The notes under the pieces are model-generated. The model saw only the letters and a program-made list of their open reading frames with translations, searched no databases and was not told the origin of the DNA. Below are positions 1,596 to 22,847 of a DNA stretch of 32,448 nucleotides, in pieces. Source of the DNA: Escherichia phage HZP2. Within the stretch, counting starts at the first letter, position 1. Every line of letters begins with the position of its first letter. The stretch is taken from the sequence record NC_048164.1; one strand, written 5' to 3'. Made by a program: the position numbers and the translations under genes.

Positions 1596-3356
1596 GTGTC
1601 TACTCAGTCCAATCGTAATGCGCTCGTTGTGGCGCAACTAAAGGGTGACTTCGTGGCGTTCCTGTTCGTCTTATGGAAGGCGTTAAACCTACCAGTGCCA
1701 ACTAAGTGTCAAATCGACATGGCTAAGGTGCTGGCGAATGGAGACAACAAGAAGTTCATCCTACAGGCTTTCCGTGGTATCGGTAAGTCATTCATCACAT
1801 GTGCGTTCGTTGTGTGGTCCTTATGGAGGGACCCTCAGTTGAAGATACTTATCGTATCAGCTTCTAAAGAACGTGCAGACGCTAACTCCATATTCATCAA
1901 GAACATCATTGACCTGCTGCCGTTTCTCAGTGAGTTGAAGCCGAGACCCGGACAGCGTGACTCTGTGATTAGTTTTGATGTTGGCCCCGCTAGTCCTGAC
2001 CACTCGCCTAGTGTGAAATCAGTAGGTATCACTGGTCAGTTAACAGGTAGTCGTGCTGATATTATCATTGCGGATGACGTTGAGATTCCGTCTAACAGTG
2101 CTACTATGGGTGCCCGTGAGAAGCTATGGACTCTCGTTCAGGAGTTCGCTGCGTTACTTAAACCACTACCTACGTCTCGTGTTATCTACCTTGGTACCCC
2201 TCAGACTGAGATGACTCTCTATAAGGAACTTGAGGATAACCGTGGGTACACAACCATTATCTGGCCTGCTCTGTATCCAAGGACACACGAAGAGAACCTC
2301 TATTACTCACAGCGTCTTGCTCCTATGCTACGTGCTGAGTACGATGAGAACCCTGAGGCACTCGCTGGGACTCCTACAGACCCTGTTCGGTTCGACCGAG
2401 ACGACCTGCGTGAGCGTGAGTTGGAATACGGTAAGGCTGGCTTTACGCTACAGTTCATGCTTAACCCGAACCTGAGTGACGCTGAGAAGTACCCTCTGAG
2501 GCTCCGTGACGCTATCGTAGCGGTCTTAGACTTAGAGAAGGCACCGATGCATTACCAGTGGCTTCCGAACCGTCAGAACATCATTGAGGACCTTCCTAAC
2601 GTGGGCCTTAAGGGTGACGACCTACATACATACCATGAGTGCTCGAATAACTCTGGTCAGTATCAACAGAAGATTCTGGTCATTGACCCAAGTGGTCGTG
2701 GTAAGGACGAAACAGGTTACGCTGTGCTGTACACCCTCAACGGTTACATCTACCTAATGGAAGCTGGTGGTTTCCGTGACGGTTACTCCGATAAGACCCT
2801 TGAGTTGCTCGCTAAGAAAGCCAAGCAATGGGGAGTCCAGACGGTTGTCTACGAGAGTAACTTCGGTGATGGTATGTTTGGTAAGGTATTCAGTCCTATC
2901 CTTCTTAAACACCACAACTGCGCGATGGAGGAGATTCGTGCTCGTGGTATGAAGGAGATTCGTATTTGTGATACCCTTGAGCCAGTCATGCAGACTCACC
3001 GCCTTATCATTCGCGATGAGGTCATTAGGGCCGACTACCAGTCAGCTCGTGACGTAGACGGTAAACATGACGTTAAGTATTCACTATTCTACCAGATGAC
3101 CCGTATCACCCGTGAGAAAGGTGCTCTGGCTCATGATGACCGATTGGATGCCCTTGCGTTAGGCGTTGAGTATCTCCGTGAGTCCATGCAGTTGGATTCC
3201 GTTAAGGTCGAAGGTGAAGTGCTTGCTGACTTCCTTGAGGAACACATGATGCGTCCTACAGTTTCTGCTACCCACATCATTGAGATGTCTGTAGGAGGAG
3301 TTGATGTGTACTCTGAGGACGATGAGGGATACGGTACGTCTTTCATTGAGTGGTGA
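1596..3356 (+). CDS. 19: terminase large subunit / DNA maturase B (T7 gp19 homolog)
   Basis: 586 aa, near-identical to T7 gp19 ([24 protein letters not shown]...TSFIEW). GTG start at 1596 directly after GGAGG; T7 gene 19 also appears to start with GTG. Confidence 0.95.
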
Positions 3357-3393
3357 TTTATGAGGCCAAGGAAGGCCGCTTTAAGGAGGTAAT

Positions 3394-3837
3394 ATGATAA
3401 GCAAGAAGAAGTATGTTATCGATAAGGAGACTGGTTGCTGGAACTTTAGGGGATGTAAGACGAAGACTGGTTATGGTCGCATTCGTGTGAACGGAGTCCA
3501 TTGGATGGCCCACAGGTATTCCCTGAGTTGTCATCTAGGCAGACCGATAGCTGACGGAATGGTTGTGATGCACCTATGTGATAATCCTTCATGTGTTAAC
3601 CCTGAGCACCTTAAGGAAGGGACTCAGAAGGAGAACATAGAGGACTGCATCTCAAAAGGTCGTGCAACTAAGTCCACAGGTAAACGTGATGCAACTAAGA
3701 GAGACCCTAGCGAGGAACGTAAGGCTATAGTGATTCGAAGATACCATAAAGGCTGGACCGCAACGTCCATAGCGAGATACCATAAGCTCTCTGTGGCGTG
3801 GGTAAAGAGGGTCATTGAGGATTACCTAAGTGATTGA
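3394..3837 (+). CDS. free-standing HNH homing endonuclease (HNH motif plus C-terminal helix-turn-helix)
   Basis: 147 aa; GCWNF..GYGRIRVNG..HR....VVMHLCDNPSCVNPEHL is an HNH_3-type motif, same architecture as T7 gp7.7/gp5.3. Strong RBS TAAGGAGGT 7 nt upstream. T7 has no gene at this position. Confidence 0.85.
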   Translation: MISKKKYVIDKETGCWNFRGCKTKTGYGRIRVNGVHWMAHRYSLSCHLGRPIADGMVVMHLCDNPSCVNPEHLKEGTQKENIEDCISKGRATKSTGKRDATKRDPSEERKAIVIRRYHKGWTATSIARYHKLSVAWVKRVIEDYLSD

Positions 3838-3888
3838 TATTTGAAATTAGTGATACAGGTCTAAGTATATGATTACAGACCATTATTC

Positions 3889-3911
3889 TAATTCGACTCA
3901 CTATAGGGAGA
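3889..3911 (+). promoter_or_regulatory. T7 RNAP promoter (phiOR-like, right-end replication promoter)
   Basis: TAATTCGACTCACTATAGGGAGA, 21/23 match to the T7 class III consensus; positioned upstream of gene 19.5 as phiOR is in T7. Confidence 0.8.
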
Positions 3912-4002
3912 AGCCTACCTAAAGATTACTATAAGACTTAAAGTTACCTATAAGGTAGGTTGTTATTATTGTTAATACAACCAACATAAAGGGAGGAGAC
4001 TC

Positions 4003-4152
4003 ATGTTCCGCTTATTGTTGAACCTACTGCGGCATAGAGTCACCTATCGCTTTCTTGTGGTACTTTGTGCTGCCCTTGGGTACGCATCGCTTAATGGAGA
4101 CCTCAGTTCACTGGAGTCTGCCGTTTGCTCTTTACTCACTTGTAGTGATTAA
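4003..4152 (+). CDS. 19.5: gp19.5 homolog (small protein of unknown function)
   Basis: 49 aa MFRLLLNLLRHRVTYRFLVVLCAALGYASLNGDLSSLESAVCSLLTCSD, near-identical to T7 gp19.5; GGGAGGAG RBS. Not in the ORF track because it is under 60 aa. Confidence 0.85.
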   Translation: MFRLLLNLLRHRVTYRFLVVLCAALGYASLNGDLSSLESAVCSLLTCSD

Positions 4153-4562: not shown

Positions 4563-4644
4563 TCACCTCCTAACGTCTATCCTAAGTCAACACCAACAGA
4601 ATAACCATAAAGGCCCCTCAAGTCAATACCCCATCTTAAAGATA

Positions 4645-4692
4645 ATCCTAACGACCATCCTAACGACCATCCTAACGACCATCCTAACGACC
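4645..4692. repeat. tandem direct repeat, 4 perfect copies of 12-bp unit ATCCTAACGACC (plus a degenerate fifth)
   Basis: Directly visible: ATCCTAACGACC x4 at 4645-4692 followed by ATCCTGATGATG; lies in the left-end non-coding region where T7 has an array of short CCTAAAG-containing repeats. Confidence 0.95.
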
Positions 4693-4747
4693 ATCCTGAT
4701 GATGCCTTGTCGTTACTTATAAAGAGATGACCAATAATCATTGTCTT

Positions 4748-4770
4748 TAATTCGACTCACTATAGGGAGA
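4748..4770 (+). promoter_or_regulatory. T7 RNAP promoter (phiOL-like, left-end)
   Basis: TAATTCGACTCACTATAGGGAGA, identical 23-mer to the phiOR-like promoter at 3889-3911; located just upstream of the host-promoter array like T7 phiOL. Confidence 0.8.
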
Positions 4771-5806: not shown

Positions 5807-5961
5807 TGGCTAACAACACCACGCAATACGGTCTGACCGCTCAAACTGTACTGTTTTATAGTGACATGGTGCGCTGTGGTTTTGACTGGTCGCTAGCAAT
5901 GGAACACCTTAAGGAACTGTACGAAAACAACAAGGCAATAGCCTTGGAGTCTGCTGAGTGA
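5806..5961 (+). CDS. 0.4: gp0.4 homolog (in T7 an FtsZ-inhibiting early protein)
   Basis: 51 aa [51 protein letters not shown]; ATG overlaps the ocr stop (TAATG); matches T7 gp0.4. Confidence 0.85.
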   Translation: MANNTTQYGLTAQTVLFYSDMVRCGFDWSLAMEHLKELYENNKAIALESAE

Positions 5962-6005
5962 TAGGCTCAAGGTCGCTCAATACGAGTGGCCTTTATGATT
6001 ATCAT
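5959..6005 (+). promoter_or_regulatory. RNase III processing site (R0.5-like)
   Basis: TGATAGGCTCAAGGTCGCTCAATACGAGTGGCCTTTATGATTATCA, conserved T7 RNase III site architecture. Confidence 0.6.
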
Positions 6006-6023
6006 TCTGAAACAGGTGTACCT

Positions 6024-6467
6024 ATGTCACAACAAGCTAAAACTTGCATAGCGTGCGGTGAGTTCAAGCCGTTGACGCAATACTACAAGAATGCCTCATC
6101 CCTTGATGGTCACATTGGGACGTGTAAGGCATGTAAGGCCAAACAACAAAGGGAACGAAGGGCACGGAAAAGCAACGCAGAGAGATACAAAAAGGAGGCA
6201 GCACGCCGCCGCGCCAATCATCTGCGAGCAAACTACGGGATAGAAGAGGAAACCTATCGCAAGATGTACGAAGAACAACATGGGGTCTGCGCCATATGCA
6301 AACAACCTGAGAGTATTGAGGGCAGGAGTCTCTGTGTGGACCATTCACATATTACAGGAGAGGTACGTGGGCTTCTATGCTCCAATTGCAACAGAGGGAT
6401 TGGCTTACTCAAGGACTCCCCAGAGTTGGTACGAAACGCTTTTCACTACTTAACCGGTAAACTATAG
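6024..6467 (+). CDS. endonuclease VII-family (HNH-like) nuclease with N-terminal Cys-rich zinc-ribbon-like region; occupies the position of T7 gene 0.5
   Basis: 147 aa; C-terminal YEEQHGVCAICKQPE..LCVDHSHITGEVRGLLCSNCNRGIG matches the T4 endonuclease VII (gp49) N-terminal catalytic motif (C-x2-C ... DH-x-H ... VRGLLC-x2-CN). N-terminus has CIACG...CKACK plus an Arg/Lys-rich linker. Start set at the ATG at 6024 (ORF-track start 5958 is a GTG extension across the RNase III site). Confidence 0.85.
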   Translation: MSQQAKTCIACGEFKPLTQYYKNASSLDGHIGTCKACKAKQQRERRARKSNAERYKKEAARRRANHLRANYGIEEETYRKMYEEQHGVCAICKQPESIEGRSLCVDHSHITGEVRGLLCSNCNRGIGLLKDSPELVRNAFHYLTGKL

Positions 6468-6710
6468 GATGCACATTATGAAACACTACGTTATGCCTAT
6501 CCACACCAAGAACGGCGTAACCATGAGGTAGCTGTAGATGTACTAGGAAGAACCAATAACGCTATGCTCTGGGTCAATATGCTCTCTGGGGACTTTAAGT
6601 CGCTTGAGGAGCGAATCGCGCTGCGCTGGCGTAATGCTGACCGCATGGCTATCGCTAATGGTCTTCCGCTAAACATTGATAAGCAACTTGACGCAATGCT
6701 AATGGGCTGA
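6468..6710 (+). pseudogene. remnant of the gene 0.6 / 0.7 (protein kinase) region: 0.6 start fused out of frame to the last ~60 codons of 0.7
   Basis: ATGCACATTATGAAACACTACGTTATGCCTATCCACAC (gp0.6 N-terminus MKHYVMPIH) runs into GAACGGCGTAACCATGAGGTAGCTGTAGATGTACTAGG... which encodes the T7 gp0.7 C-terminus ([24 protein letters not shown]...[12 protein letters not shown]) in a different frame; the kinase domain is absent. Confidence 0.75.
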
Positions 6711-6779: not shown

Positions 6780-9431
6780 ATGAGCACGATTAACATCGCT
6801 AAGAACGATTTCTCTGACATCGAACTAGCCGCTATCCCGTTCAATACTCTGGCTGACCACTACGGTGAGCGTCTAGCTCGCGAGCAGTTGGCCCTTGAGC
6901 ATGAGTCTTACGAAATGGGTGAAGCACGTTTCCGCAAGATGTTTGAGCGTCAACTCAAGGCCGGTGAGGTTGCAGACAACGCTGCCGCTAAGCCTCTTAT
7001 TACTACCCTGCTCCCCAAGATGATTGCACGCATCAACGATTGGTTTGAGGAAGTGAAAGCTAAGCGTGGCAAACGTCCAACCGCTTTCCAGTTCCTGCAG
7101 GGAATCAAGCCGGAATCTGTAGCGTATATCACCATTAAGACTACTCTTGCTTGCCTAACGAGCGTGGACAATACAACCGTTCAGGCTGTAGCAAGCGCCA
7201 TCGGACGGGCTATCGAGGAAGAAGCTCGCTTCGGTAGAATCCGTGACCTAGAAGCTAAGCACTTCAAGAAAAACGTTGAGGAACAACTAAACAAGCGCGT
7301 AGGGCACGTCTATAAGAAGGCATTCATGCAGGTAGTCGAGGCTGATATGCTCTCTAAGGGTCTACTAGGTGGCGAGGCGTGGTCTTCATGGCACAAGGAA
7401 GACTCCATTCACGTAGGTGTGCGCTGCATTGAGATGCTCATTGAGTCCACCGGAATGGTTAGCCTGCACCGCCAAAATGCTGGCGTAGTGGGCCAAGACT
7501 CTGAGACTATCGAGCTGGCACACGAATACGCTGAGGCTATCGCAACCCGCGCTGGGGCACTGGCTGGCATCTCTCCGATGTATCAGCCTTGCATAGTCCC
7601 TCCTAAGCCTTGGACTGGTGTAACTGGTGGTGGCTACTGGGCCAACGGTCGCCGCCCTCTGGTACTGGTACGCACTCACAGCAAGAAGGCACTGATGCGC
7701 TACGAAGATGTTTACATGCCTGAGGTATACAAGGCGATCAACATTGCGCAAAACACCGCATGGAAAATCAACAAGAAAGTCCTAGCAGTCGCCAACGTGA
7801 TAACCAAGTGGAAGCACTGCCCAGTCGAGGACATCCCTTCGATTGAGCGTGAAGAACTCCCGATGAAACCGGAAGACATCGACACGAATCCTGAGGCTCT
7901 CACCGCTTGGAAACGTGCTGCCGCTGCTGTGTACCGTAAAGACAAGGCACGCAAGTCTCGCCGCATCAGCCTTGAGTTCATGCTTGAGCAAGCCAATAAG
8001 TTTGCGAACCGTAAGGCCATCTGGTTCCCTTACAACATGGACTGGCGTGGCCGTGTGTACGCTGTGTCAATGTTTAATCCGCAAGGTAACGACATGACCA
8101 AAGGTCTGCTGACACTGGCTAAAGGTAAACCAATCGGCAAGGAAGGATTTTACTGGCTGAAAATCCACGGGGCCAACTGCGCGGGGGTCGATAAGGTTCC
8201 ATTCCCTGAGCGCATCAAGTTCATTGAGGACAACCACGATAATATCATGGCGTGCGCTAAGTCTCCACTTGAAAACACTTGGTGGGCTGAGCAAGATTCT
8301 CCGTTCTGCTTCCTCGCGTTCTGCTTTGAGTACGCTGGGGTACAGCACCACGGATTGAGCTACAACTGCTCGCTGCCGCTGGCGTTCGATGGGTCTTGCT
8401 CTGGCATCCAGCACTTCTCCGCAATGCTCCGCGACGAGGTAGGTGGTCGTGCTGTTAACCTACTGCCTAGCGAAACCGTTCAGGACATCTACGGGATTGT
8501 TGCCAAGAAAGTCAACGAGATTCTGCAAGAGGATGCAATCAACGGGACCGATAACGAAGTGATTACCGTGACCGATGAGAACACGGGCGAAATCTCTGAG
8601 AAAATCAAGCTGGGTACTAAAGCACTGGCTGGTCAATGGTTGGCCTACGGTGTGACCCGTAGCGTCACTAAACGTTCAGTCATGACGCTGGCCTATGGTT
8701 CCAAAGAGTTCGGCTTCCGTCAGCAAGTTCTGGAGGATACCATACAGCCAGCTATTGATTCAGGCAAAGGTCTGATGTTCACCCAACCCAATCAGGCCGC
8801 TGGGTACATGGCTAAGCTGATTTGGGAATCTGTGAGCGTTACCGTAGTGGCTGCTGTAGAGGCCATGAACTGGCTCAAGTCTGCCGCTAAGTTGTTGGCT
8901 GCTGAGGTCAAAGATAAGAAGACTGGTGAGATTCTTCGCAAGCGTTGCGCGGTGTATTGGGTAACTCCTGATGGCTTCCCTGTGTGGCAGGAATACAAGA
9001 AGCCTATTCAGACTCGCTTGAACCTGATGTTCCTCGGTCAGTTCCGCTTACAGCCAACCATTAACACTAACAAGGATAGTGAGATTGATGCACACAAACA
9101 GGAGTCCGGTATTGCCCCTAACTTTGTACACAGCCAAGACGGTAGCCACCTGCGTAAGACTGTAGTGTGGGCACATGAGAAGTACGGAATCGAATCGTTT
9201 GCATTGATTCACGACTCCTTCGGGACCATTCCGGCTGACGCTGCCAACCTATTCAAGGCTGTTCGTGAGACTATGGTTGACACCTACGAGTCCTGCGATG
9301 TACTTGCAGACTTCTACAACCAGTTCGCTGACCAGTTACATGAGTCTCAACTTGATAAAATGCCAGCACTTCCGGCTAAAGGTAGCTTGAATTTACGAGA
9401 CATCTTAGAGTCAGACTTCGCGTTTGCGTAA
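6780..9431 (+). CDS. 1: single-subunit DNA-directed RNA polymerase (T7 gp1 homolog)
   Basis: 883 aa, near-identical to T7 RNAP over its whole length (MSTINIAKNDFSDIELAAIPFNTLADHYGERLAREQLALEHESYEMGEARF ... HDSFGT ... DFAFA). Confidence 0.98.
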   Translation: MSTINIAKNDFSDIELAAIPFNTLADHYGERLAREQLALEHESYEMGEARFRKMFERQLKAGEVADNAAAKPLITTLLPKMIARINDWFEEVKAKRGKRPTAFQFLQGIKPESVAYITIKTTLACLTSVDNTTVQAVASAIGRAIEEEARFGRIRDLEAKHFKKNVEEQLNKRVGHVYKKAFMQVVEADMLSKGLLGGEAWSSWHKEDSIHVGVRCIEMLIESTGMVSLHRQNAGVVGQDSETIELAHEYAEAIATRAGALAGISPMYQPCIVPPKPWTGVTGGGYWANGRRPLVLVRTHSKKALMRYEDVYMPEVYKAINIAQNTAWKINKKVLAVANVITKWKHCPVEDIPSIEREELPMKPEDIDTNPEALTAWKRAAAAVYRKDKARKSRRISLEFMLEQANKFANRKAIWFPYNMDWRGRVYAVSMFNPQGNDMTKGLLTLAKGKPIGKEGFYWLKIHGANCAGVDKVPFPERIKFIEDNHDNIMACAKSPLENTWWAEQDSPFCFLAFCFEYAGVQHHGLSYNCSLPLAFDGSCSGIQHFSAMLRDEVGGRAVNLLPSETVQDIYGIVAKKVNEILQEDAINGTDNEVITVTDENTGEISEKIKLGTKALAGQWLAYGVTRSVTKRSVMTLAYGSKEFGFRQQVLEDTIQPAIDSGKGLMFTQPNQAAGYMAKLIWESVSVTVVAAVEAMNWLKSAAKLLAAEVKDKKTGEILRKRCAVYWVTPDGFPVWQEYKKPIQTRLNLMFLGQFRLQPTINTNKDSEIDAHKQESGIAPNFVHSQDGSHLRKTVVWAHEKYGIESFALIHDSFGTIPADAANLFKAVRETMVDTYESCDVLADFYNQFADQLHESQLDKMPALPAKGSLNLRDILESDFAFA

Positions 9432-13905: not shown

Positions 13906-16066
<2,161 letters not shown>

Positions 16067-17113: not shown

Positions 17114-19072
17114 ATGATCGTTTCTGACATCGAAGCTAACGCCCTCTTAGAGAGCGTCACTAAGTTCCACTGCGGGGTTATCTACGACTACTCCACCGCT
17201 GAGTACGTAAGCTACCGTCCGAGTGACTTCGGTGCGTATCTGGATGCGCTGGAAGCCGAGGTTGCACGAGGCGGTCTTATTGTGTTCCACAACGGTCACA
17301 AGTATGACGTTCCAGCATTGACCAAACTGGCTAAGTTACAGCTTAACCGTGAGTTCCACCTACCCCGTGAGAACTGTATTGACACACTTGTGTTGTCACG
17401 CTTGATTCACTCAAACCTGAAAGACACCGATATGGGTCTTCTGCGTTCCGGTAAACTTCCGGGTAAACGCTTTGGGTCTCACGCTTTGGAGGCGTGGGGC
17501 TATCGCTTAGGTGAAATGAAGGGTGAATACAAAGATGACTTTAAGCGTATGCTTGAAGAACAAGGTGAAGAATACGTTGACGGCATGGAGTGGTGGAACT
17601 TCAACGAAGAGATGATGGCCTATAACGTTCAGGACGTTGTGGTCACTAAGGCTCTCCTTGAGAAGCTACTCTCTGACAAACATTACTTCCCTCCTGAGAT
17701 TGACTTTACGGACGTAGGCTACTCTACGTTCTGGTCAGAATCCCTTGAGGCCGTTGATGTTGAACATCGTGCTGCGTGGCTACTCGCTAAGCAAGAGCGA
17801 AATGGATTCCCATTTGACACGAAAGCAATCGAAGAGTTGTACGTAGAGTTGGCTGCCCGCCGCTCTGAGTTGCTCCGCAAATTGACCGAAACGTTCGGCT
17901 CGTGGTATCAGCCTAAGGGTGGCACAGAAATGTTCTGCCATCCGAGGACTGGTAAGCCATTACCTAAATATCCTCGCATTAAGACACCTAAAGTTGGTGG
18001 TATCTTTAAGAAGCCTAAGAACAAGGCACAGCGAGAGGGCCGTGAGCCTTGTGAACTGGATACCCGTGAATACGTTGCTGGTGCTCCATATACTCCTGTA
18101 GAGCACGTAGTGTTTAACCCTTCGTCCCGTGACCACATTCAGAAGAAACTTCAAGAGGCTGGATGGGTCCCCACGAAGTACACCGATAAGGGTGCGCCTG
18201 TGGTGGACGATGAGGTACTCGAAGGAGTACGTGTAGATGACCCTGAGAAGCAAGCCGCTATCGACCTTATTAAAGAATACCTGATGATTCAGAAGAGAAT
18301 CGGTCAGTCTGCTGAGGGAGACAAGGCATGGCTTCGTTACGTTGCTGAGGATGGTAAAATTCATGGTTCTGTTAACCCTAATGGAGCAGTTACGGGTCGT
18401 GCTACCCATGCGTTCCCAAACCTTGCGCAAATTCCGGGTGTACGTTCTCCTTATGGTGAGCAGTGCCGCGCTGCTTTTGGCGCTGAACATCACTTAGATG
18501 GACTTACAGGTAAGCCTTGGGTTCAGGCTGGTATAGACGCCTCCGGTCTGGAGTTACGTTGCTTGGCCCACTTTATGGCTCGCTTTGATAACGGTGAGTA
18601 CGCTCACGAGATTCTTAATGGTGACATTCACACTAAGAATCAGATAGCTGCCGAATTGCCTACCCGTGATAACGCCAAGACGTTCATCTATGGGTTCCTT
18701 TATGGTGCTGGTGATGAGAAGATTGGGCAGATTGTTGGTGCTGGCAAAGAACGCGGTAAGGAACTCAAGAAGAAATTCCTTGAGAACACTCCAGCGATTG
18801 CTGCACTCCGAGAGTCTATCCAACAGACACTCGTTGAGTCATCTCAGTGGGTAGCTGGTGAACAGCAAGTCAAGTGGAAACGCCGCTGGATTAAAGGACT
18901 TGATGGGCGCAAAGTCCATGTCCGTAGTCCTCATGCTGCCCTGAACACCTTGCTGCAATCTGCTGGTGCTCTTATCTGCAAACTGTGGATTATCAAGACC
19001 GAAGAGATGCTCTTAGAGAAAGGCTTGAAGCATGGCTGGGATGGGGACTTTGCGTACATGGCATGGGTGCAT
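17114..19072 (+). CDS. 5: DNA polymerase (T7 gp5 homolog), exon 1 (residues 1-653)
   Basis: [36 protein letters not shown]... near-identical to T7 gp5 up to ..[13 protein letters not shown]. The frame then runs into non-homologous KLSHCAH-stop, while the missing 51 C-terminal residues of gp5 are encoded at 19674-19829. Confidence 0.95.
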
Positions 19073-19673
19073 AAACTATCTCATTGTGCACATTAAATCT
19101 GGTGAACTCGGTGAAACCCTTCTAGGGCAATACCGAGCCAAGCCATAGGGAGGATATATGAGAGGCAAGAAGTTAATCCTTGCGACCACAGAGAGTGGTT
19201 GTATCATCCCTACGTCACACAAACTTAATACTGATGGTTATTTCCGAAAGAAGACGAACGGTGTCCTAGAGATGTATCACAGGACAGTCTGGAAGGAACA
19301 CTACGGAGATATACCAGAAGGGTATGAAGTAGACCACAAGTGTAGGAACAGGGCGTGCTGTAACGTAGAGCACCTCCAGTTATTAGAAGGTTCTGAGCAT
19401 ACAGTCAAGACAAACAGGGAACGATACGCTGACCGTAAAGAGTCCGCGAAGGAACACTGGTTGGAGACTGGATGTACAGGAACACACTTAGGTGAGAAGT
19501 TTGGTGTAACGTTCTCTGCCGCTTGTAAGTGGATTAGAGAGTGGAAGGCGTAGAGACTATCCGAAAGGAGTAGGGCCGAGGGTGAGATTCCCTCGTTACC
19601 CGAAGCGCCAGACAGTCAACTCAAAGGCTGATGATATAGTCCGACACTCCTAGCAATAGGAGAATACAGAAAG
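19073..19673 (+). mobile_element. group I self-splicing intron (601 nt) interrupting DNA polymerase gene 5
   Basis: Exon 1 ends in U (..GUGCAU) and an internal guide-like GTGCAC at 19086-19091 can pair with it with a terminal U.G wobble (P1). P7-like pairing GACTAT (19555-19560) / ATAGTC (19636-19641) with a GAAA tetraloop hairpin between. Intron ends in G (..CAGAAAG) directly before exon 2 GATGAGATT. Joining 19072 to 19674 restores the exact T7 gp5 sequence WVH/DEIQVGC. Confidence 0.85.
19158..19553 (+). CDS. intron-encoded HNH homing endonuclease
   Basis: 131 aa; EGYEVDHKCRNRACCNVEHLQL (HNH motif) with C-terminal helix-turn-helix-like segment; GGGAGG RBS; in a different frame from gene 5; stop TAG lies just before the P7 element. 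Confidence 0.85.
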   Translation: MRGKKLILATTESGCIIPTSHKLNTDGYFRKKTNGVLEMYHRTVWKEHYGDIPEGYEVDHKCRNRACCNVEHLQLLEGSEHTVKTNRERYADRKESAKEHWLETGCTGTHLGEKFGVTFSAACKWIREWKA

Positions 19674-19829
19674 GATGAGATTCAGGTAGGTTGTCGTACC
19701 GAAGAGATTGCTCAGGTGGTCATTGAGACTGCACAGGAAGCGATGCGCTGGGTAGGAGACCACTGGAACTTCCGGTGTCTTCTGGATACCGAAGGTAAGA
19801 TGGGTCCTAATTGGGCTGTATGTCACTAA
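19674..19829 (+). CDS. 5: DNA polymerase (T7 gp5 homolog), exon 2 (C-terminal 51 residues)
   Basis: DEIQVGCRTEEIAQVVIETAQEAMRWVGDHWNFRCLLDTEGKMGPNWAVCH-stop, equals the T7 gp5 C-terminus; no start codon of its own (hence absent from the ORF track). Exon 1 plus exon 2 = 704 aa, the length of T7 gp5. Confidence 0.9.
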   Translation, partial: DEIQVGCRTEEIAQVVIETAQEAMRWVGDHWNFRCLLDTEGKMGPNWAVCH

Positions 19830-22532: not shown

Positions 22533-22847
22533 ATGGGTAAGAAAATTAAGAAGGCCGTGAAGAAAGTCACTAAGTCCGTTAAGAAAGCCGTGAAGAAAGT
22601 TACCAAGGAAGTGGCTCGTCCGGTTAAACAGGTTGCTGGTGGTCTGGCCGGTGGTACTGGTGAGGCGCAAGTAGTGGAAGTTCCACAGGCTGCTGCAACT
22701 CCTGCTGCACAGATTGTTGACGTACCTGAGAAAGAGGTTTCCACTGAGGACGAAGCACAGACCGAAAGCGGACGTAAGAAAGCCCGTGCTGGTGGTAAGA
22801 AGTCCCTGAGCGTGGCTCGTAGCTCCGGTGGTGGAATCAATATTTAA
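22533..22847 (+). CDS. 7.3: gp7.3 homolog (tail/adsorption-associated protein)
   Basis: 104 aa MGKKIKKAVKKVTKSVKKAVKKVTKEVARPVKQVAGGLAGGTGEAQVVEV..., Lys-rich repeats as in T7 gp7.3. Confidence 0.9.
   Translation: MGKKIKKAVKKVTKSVKKAVKKVTKEVARPVKQVAGGLAGGTGEAQVVEVPQAAATPAAQIVDVPEKEVSTEDEAQTESGRKKARAGGKKSLSVARSSGGGINI

Follow-up and report, generated by a model that had tools for sequence, protein, structure and literature searches.

I-HmuI, the nuclease whose known structure comes closest to that of the protein discussed here, is a monomeric, strand-specific nickase. T7 itself has the HNH genes 2.8, 3.8 and 7.7, which have been treated as homing endonucleases (bioRxiv 10.1101/2025.09.07.674715). 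In phage 13a (EU734174 / NC_011045) a gene 19.4 is annotated, followed by phiOR and gene 19.5. The gene is named 'HNH endonuclease' in RefSeq and 'putative homing endonuclease' by the authors of the BASEL collection. Our search of the literature yielded no paper that deals with 'gp19.4' or 'gene 19.4' in T7-like phages, and no cleavage site or biochemical test for any member at the gene 19/19.5 locus. T7 uses phiOR as a secondary origin of replication (PMC8373140), and packaging signals lie toward the gene 19.5 end of the genome (PMC9860248).

The window, that is, the whole stretch of 32,448 nucleotides from Escherichia phage HZP2 (NC_048164.1) that was analysed, is a T7-like (Teseptimavirus) genome read across its genome ends. 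It carries an HNH gene after gene 19. This gene is a known and widespread occupant of its slot, ordinary in T7 relatives and not new, and the locus matters little beyond correct annotation. It is nevertheless a clean example of the way in which genomes of the T7 group differ mainly by homing-endonuclease cassettes in fixed slots. Four refinements are offered here: the true borders of the cassette (3363-3979), the replacement of an allele that includes phiOR, strong constraint combined with a recent lateral copy, and an exchanged DNA-binding domain.

The gene and its surroundings

The features of the locus are collected in Table 1. Gene 19 aligns with T7 gene 19 over all of its 1758 nt, with no internal stop; its stop codon occupies 3354-3356, and the HNH ORF begins 37 nt past it. 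A reading of the same DNA made from the sequence alone (the sequence-only reading) had described an ORF of 147 codons with HNH and helix-turn-helix parts and an excellent ribosome-binding site right after the terminase stop. ORF, ribosome-binding site and domains are all borne out, and AAGGAGGT is kept in 12 of 12 carrier genomes. Past gene 19.5 the genome ends are reached, and then follow phiOL, gene 0.3 (ocr) and gene 1 (6780-9431); the genome end is about 0.6 kb from the HNH ORF. Neither before nor behind this ORF is there a sigma-70 promoter or a terminator beyond chance expectation, and zero Rfam families match at gathering score in the whole window. As nothing of this kind separates the HNH ORF from gene 19, its product is probably late, made by read-through of class III transcripts.

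Table 1. Coordinates of features at the gene 19/19.5 locus of phage HZP2, in positions of the window
Feature	Position	Strand	Remarks
Gene 19 (large terminase)	1596..3356	+	586-aa ORF; left flank, outside the mobile block
617-nt block ('haplotype B') replacing 229 nt of T7	3363..3979	+	Break points from local alignment to T7
Inverted repeat GGCC-AAGGAA-GGCC	3364..3377	+	Just past the gene 19 stop
Ribosome-binding site AAGGAGGT	3383..3390	+	Direct reading of the sequence; 3 nt before the ATG
Putative HNH homing endonuclease gene, positional equivalent of 13a gene 19.4	3394..3837	+	147 aa + stop
Nuclease domain, residues 1-90	3394..3663	+	Beta-beta-alpha metal finger; H60, N81; zinc ligands C15, C62, C67, H72
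Basic flexible linker, residues 91-104	3664..3705	+	pLDDT 60-77 over residues 91-110
Three-helix helix-turn-helix DNA-binding domain, residues 105-147	3706..3834	+	HTH_23; exchanged in the 13a/Vi06 allele
phiOR-type T7 RNA polymerase promoter TAATTCGACTCACTATAGGGAGA	3889..3911	+	Same place annotated phiOR in 13a
A+T-rich stretch downstream of phiOR	3912..3979	+	T7-like layout, strongly diverged sequence, highly conserved among carriers
Gene 19.5	4003..4152	+	49-aa ORF, DUF5465 match; right flank, outside the block

Several small features of the neighbourhood deserve a word. The inverted repeat just past the gene 19 stop, with four base pairs and a six-base loop, is kept in both types of interval, and alignments display compensatory changes in it: GACC..GGTC in T7, TGCC..GGCA in JacobBurckhardt, GGCC..GGCC in the window. 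A mini-ORF of ten codons (3360-3392), which ends just before the HNH start and whose first 3 nt belong to the flank common with T7, was judged not meaningful. Likewise, a T7-promoter-like 15-mer lies antisense inside the HNH gene (3725-3739, minus strand), where it reads, but for one mismatch, as the promoter core in reverse complement; since synonymous changes break it in other alleles, we judged it a chance resemblance. The phiOR of the window and its phiOL (4748-4770) are identical 23-mers, with T replacing A at the fifth base. The same T is present in phiOR of the non-carriers Yep_15 and AnnaIndermaur, so that this base does not go with the nuclease gene. Just upstream of phiOL, near the left genome end, five tandem copies of the 12-nt unit CCATCCTAACGA occupy 4631-4702.

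A replaced interval

The sequence-only reading saw the gene as inserted, with a feature end at 3920, into an interval that would be short and non-coding in T7. Non-coding it is, with phiOR (T7 and phiA1122 have zero ORFs between genes 19 and 19.5), but not particularly short, as it measures 258 nt. Similarity to T7 ends between 3362 and 3363, 6 nt past the gene 19 stop, and resumes between 3979 and 3980, 23 nt before the start of gene 19.5. What the alignment with the T7 interval displays is not a plain insertion: the 617 nt in the window stand in the place of 229 nt in T7, and the limit at 3920 was arbitrary, the foreign block reaching 3979. That the flanking intergenic sequence differs from T7 was correctly seen, and between the break points the two phages have in common only phiOR (22 of 23 bases) and a faint similarity of layout. 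The block comprises the HNH gene, a phiOR of its own and a diverged downstream stretch.

The sequence to the right of the ORF (3838-4002) is found only in records that also hold the HNH ORF. An 'empty' interval of the carrier type is absent from 50,697 phage records, and in IMG/VR the seven loci with a carrier-type flank all hold the full ORF. The two intervals being so diverged, and the right part never occurring without the ORF, the locus has two alleles, and the nuclease gene travels with a rewritten phiOR-proximal sequence. In other words, the cassette replaces this sequence and is not merely placed beside phiOR.

In six non-carriers phiOR and about 160 nt downstream are almost invariant, and carriers have their own, equally conserved version. 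In the non-carriers this stretch is more conserved than the adjoining coding sequence (about 95% identical), which could result from strong functional constraint or from a recent sweep.

The protein

The sequence-only reading had proposed an HNH endonuclease with a DNA-binding tail, and this is upheld. Pfam HNH_3 covers residues 39-81 (E 9.5e-9, 35.2 bits for a cut-off of 24.8) and HTH_23 residues 104-145 (27.4 bits, cut-off 24.6), while PHROG 6254, 'HNH endonuclease', matches end to end (3e-60). The pattern H-x-C-x4-C-x4-H-x8-N can be read directly, as catalytic histidine and asparagine together with a zinc site of the Cys3His kind. Across 48 aligned homologues C15, G26, H40, H60, C62, N64, C67, N69, P70, H72, L73 and N81 are invariant, among them the residues for catalysis and zinc binding.

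Sequence search of solved structures yields a weak match to I-HmuI alone (E 0.75), and comparison of folds was therefore needed. The AlphaFold model (mean pLDDT 89.7) has a beta-rich N-terminal domain, a low-confidence linker (residues 91-110) and a three-helix C-terminal domain. Residues 51-90 of the nuclease domain are modelled at pLDDT 87-95, with strands 57-60 and 73-76 and a helix at 78-87; the C-terminal helices span 105-118, 123-130 and 134-146. With Foldseek the first PDB match is I-HmuI (probability 1.00), then comes I-PpoI (0.94), and the C-terminal tail matches the helix-turn-helix domains of Fis and resolvase. H60 and N81 align with the catalytic histidine and asparagine of I-HmuI. 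Fold, catalytic residues and a separate DNA-binding module all place the protein in the HNH_3 (I-HmuI-like) His-Me-finger group. From these features we infer that it is a nuclease and, as a protein of 147 residues with a single active site, it would be likelier to nick than to cut both strands.

Divergence between the protein of the window and that of 13a is confined to residues 105-147. The nuclease domain and the flanks of the two alleles are nearly the same. This is an exchange of the DNA-binding domain, and it may alter target preference.

Carriers and non-carriers

A query of 1.5 kb around the site finds matches in 189 phage records, and its whole length is present in 28. The 646-nt interval itself is covered to at least 80% in 29 records, corresponding to about 23 distinct phages. 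Seventeen have the allele of the window, at 90.5-99.8% nucleotide identity: AH67C600_Q5, HZ2R8, pO111, CQ615, Yep_9, ESh6, CICC 80001, JB01, IME390, N30, 3A_8767, JeanTinguely, LNA7, YpYeO9, PDP351P2, Yanou and PHB20. The deposited protein of AH67C600_Q5 is 100% identical to that of the window. Five others, 13a, Vi06, CHRF_10025, CHRF_10027 and Sal_R1S, have the 13a-type allele, and Yersinia phage Rambo is one further carrier. Beyond these, an HNH ORF of about 150 codons stands directly past gene 19 and before a promoter in both Berlin (Berlinvirus) and fPS-59 (Helsettvirus).

When natural isolates are ranked by similarity to the window over 25 kb, the gene is present in 12 of the nearest 25. 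Its absence was checked directly in ESh1, Yep_15, AnnaIndermaur, JacobBurckhardt, T7 and phiA1122; other isolates were scored as non-carriers from their absence among the matches of the interval query.

Phage Vi06 adds a curiosity. Beside its 19.4-type gene it has a second HNH ORF (611-1153 of its locus) inside gene 19, which is annotated as interrupted; the terminase region would thus be a repeated landing place for HNH genes.

An old gene, recently copied

We examined ten carrier loci, and each has an intact HNH ORF. Over 36 pairs its mean dN is 0.023 and its mean dS 0.305, with a dN/dS of 0.07, so that the gene is under strong purifying selection; gene 19 of the same genomes has a dS of 0.310 and a ratio of 0.03. 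As the dS of the two genes match, the nuclease gene is as old as the diversity of the phages, and is no fresh arrival. The idea of a recent or unusual insertion in the HZP2 genome, put forward in the sequence-only reading, is abandoned on this ground and because the same gene with the same junctions recurs in about 23 phages, as gp19.4 in 13a. With so many carriers of the same gene at the same site among close T7 relatives, its presence is largely typical of the lineage.

The mobility suspected in that reading is supported, in another form. The window and AH67C600_Q5 are identical over 662 nt (3330-3991), the longest identical tract in 3.8 kb, and this tract coincides with the block. Just to its left there are 26 differences in 630 nt (about 4%). 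At that density the chance of a run of 662 nt free of differences is roughly e^-27, by our own arithmetic. The block is not intrinsically invariant, as other pairs of carriers differ by 5-9% within it. The tract is the mark of a lateral copy that was made recently and took along very little of the flanks. HZ2R8 displays one difference from the window in 3276-3992, and in recent pairs the shared tracts reach 12-90 nt past the block. The gene is thus present or absent at one fixed site in close relatives, with signs of lateral copying, as is expected of a mobile gene.

The flanks tell of mixing. We sought a column that would tell carriers from non-carriers and found none, either in 1750 nt of gene 19 or in a 492-nt alignment of the right flank, which begins 23 nt ahead of the start of gene 19.5 and reaches the start of the terminal repeat. 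In sliding windows the flanks are as alike between the two classes as they are within each of them, giving no sign of class-wide co-conversion. It follows that recombination has erased any older linkage. It also follows that the immunity of carriers, and any target, must lie in the replaced interval.

How the block may spread, and why it may be kept

We regard it as probable that the gene is a free-standing HNH_3 homing endonuclease cassette, made of a His-Me finger and a helix-turn-helix domain, which spreads as a 617-nt block by homing. Its protein would have a single His-Me-finger active site, stabilised by a zinc site like that of I-PpoI, and connected by the basic linker to the helix-turn-helix domain, from which sequence recognition would come. 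In a mixed infection with a relative that has the T7-type interval, the enzyme would nick or cut that interval. The likeliest target would be the very conserved phiOR-proximal stretch that is replaced in carriers. The break would then be repaired from the carrier genome by the recombination machinery of T7, and repair would copy the whole block with a flank of only tens of bases. Two points temper this account: the conserved flanks could let the block move by ordinary homologous recombination, with no need of a cut, and a general signal of co-conversion across all carriers is lacking.

A dS of 0.31 under strong constraint exceeds what a simple cycle of invasion and decay would predict, which suggests that the gene may also benefit the phage. 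The nuclease might be kept because it cripples co-infecting T7-type relatives, in interference competition, through cuts near their phiOR, origin or packaging region, or because it blunts a host defence by binding DNA. A dN/dS of 0.07 over a divergence as deep as that of gene 19 speaks for such a benefit, as do HNH ORFs in the same slot in three genera and the role of phiOR as a secondary origin (PMC8373140). Furthermore, catalytically dead T7 gp3.8 is reported to weaken GAPS4 defence (bioRxiv 10.1101/2025.09.07.674715), and anti-defence by DNA binding has been reported for other phage HNH homing endonucleases. Against it, the gene is missing from about half of the close relatives, and continued homing in a mixed population could alone maintain selection. 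We think it rather unlikely that a benefit of this kind is what keeps the nuclease; the proposal overlaps with homing, and the two are not mutually exclusive.

One may go further, and quite speculatively, to consider the two versions of the interval as competing alleles of the phiOR origin, and possibly of a packaging-signal region, with the nuclease kept as a weapon against the rival allele. If this unlikely view were true, the nuclease would spread itself and at the same time lower the yield of competitors in mixed infections, and the exchange of DNA-binding domains would reflect an arms race over target recognition.

It is very improbable that the gene encodes a relic without activity, or no more than a DNA-binding regulator, riding with an alternative phiOR allele in a block spread by ordinary recombination alone. 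The block does always travel with its own phiOR region, its flanks are freely recombined, and the catalytic mutant H77A of bas24_0090, a homing endonuclease of another phage, still hindered GAPS4-mediated protection (bioRxiv 10.1101/2025.09.07.674715). Yet the catalytic and zinc residues are all invariant, no other part of the protein is as conserved as the nuclease domain, and dN/dS is 0.07.

Finally, the sequence-only reading had pointed to the place of the nuclease next to the packaging and terminus region. It is scarcely credible that the protein assists DNA packaging or the formation of ends as an accessory nuclease, in the manner of HK97 gp74. The gene does directly follow the large terminase gene, some 0.6 kb from the genome end, and HNH genes beside terminase genes are a familiar theme (PMC3592412). 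But the domain is HNH_3 with a helix-turn-helix and not the short PF01844 type, of which Pfam finds no match, and T7 and many relatives lack the gene though their gene 19/19.5 flanks are about 94-96% identical to the window. Its presence is tracked by no polymorphism of gene 19, of gene 19.5 or of the first part of the terminal repeat, nor by the alleles of gene 18 (small terminase), the nearest gene 18 being that of WW2, which is not among the carrier records.

To return to homing, the gene is very old, is strongly constrained and has had its DNA-binding domain swapped, and this combination makes the locus a convenient test case to tell a purely selfish gene from one used in competition between phages. 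The BASEL collection holds carrier and non-carrier phages from one sewage source. The proposal that phage homing endonucleases might also act in competition or anti-defence (bioRxiv 10.1101/2025.09.07.674715) is the sole route by which this locus would gain greater interest.

Other putative mobile nucleases in the window

The DNA polymerase gene 5 is split (17114-19826): residues 1-653 of T7 gp5 have their match at 17114-19072 and residues 654-704 at 19674-19826. The insert of 600 nt gives a full-length match to a group I intron model (19063-19663; E 3.7e-7 at 35.3 bits, under the gathering score), and it holds an HNH_3 ORF of 131 codons (19158-19553). It is probably the known type of mobile intron of T7-like polymerase genes, and we rejected the idea that its ORF is a homologue of gene 5.3.

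The kinase domain of gp0.7 is missing in the region 5958-6707. Only residues 293-359 of T7 gp0.7 are left (6507-6707), behind a remnant of gene 0.6A. In the place of the kinase domain stands an ORF of 169 codons (5958-6467) with an Endonuclease VII domain match (2.1e-24), which may be another mobile nuclease. At the position of gene 3.8 an ORF of 162 codons (13906-14394) combines HNH_3 with a weak AP2 match and is 49% identical to T7 gp3.8. The window thus has at least three genes of the HNH_3 type and one of the Endonuclease VII type, with the slots of T7 genes 2.8, 5.3 and 7.7 empty; these three T7 genes are absent from the window.

Comparison with known systems

The HNH proteins of the HK97 gp74 type, helpers of the terminase in cos phages, resemble the present one in being encoded beside a terminase gene. 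They belong to another HNH subfamily; the protein of the window has an extra DNA-binding domain, is found in a phage with terminal repeats and not cos ends, and is dispensable in close relatives. A terminase-associated packaging function of this type was rejected, as PF01844 is lacking, relatives with a nearly identical terminase are without the gene, and there is no linkage to gene 18 or 19.

With I-PpoI (His-Cys box, PDB 1a74) the protein shares the spacing H-x-C-x4-C-x4-H-x8-N and a structural probability of 0.94. No second zinc site or dimer interface is evident, and the likeness is that of the active-site scaffold only. Membership of the His-Cys box family was not retained: PF05551, the zinc loop of the I-PpoI type, scores 26.3 bits, just below its cut-off of 27, and the first zinc motif alone can be read.

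I-HmuI (PDB 1u3e), an intron-encoded nicking enzyme of Bacillus phage SPO1, is the best match in fold: it is monomeric and has a His-Me finger followed by a C-terminal helix-turn-helix. It is without the cysteine zinc site, its similarity in sequence is weak, and it is encoded in an intron, whereas the gene of the window is free-standing.

Closer to home, T7 gp7.7 is 46% identical over 79 residues (15-93), in the nuclease domain, which answers to the relationship that the sequence-only reading had suspected, and gp2.8 is 39% identical over about 80 residues of that domain. They share the type of nuclease, the pattern C-x..H-x-C-x4-C-x4-H..N and a helix-turn-helix tail. Their genes occupy other genome sites, and no similarity was detected between their C-terminal domains and that of the window protein. 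That reading had also noticed, rightly, that HZP2 has no endonuclease at the 7.7 position, where gene 7.3 (22533-22847) abuts gene 8 (from 22862) and gene 7.7 is missing. When T7 gp7.7 is used as a query, its matches in the window are limited to the 19.4 ORF and the ORF of the gene 5 intron. With a different site and a similarity confined to residues 15-93, the gene does not qualify as an orthologue of gene 7.7. The window protein, gp7.7 and gp2.8 are old paralogues and not recent copies of one another, and with their different C-terminal domains they lend no support to the recent move from the 7.7 site that had been envisaged.

The true counterparts lie in the same slot. AH67C600_Q5, HZ2R8, pO111, CICC 80001, N30 and JeanTinguely have identical or nearly identical ORFs there. 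Gene 19.4 of 13a also stands between gene 19 and phiOR, with the same junctions and the same ribosome-binding site; its product is 68% identical overall and about 91% over residues 1-90, and differs, as in Vi06, in a C-terminal DNA-binding domain of different sequence.
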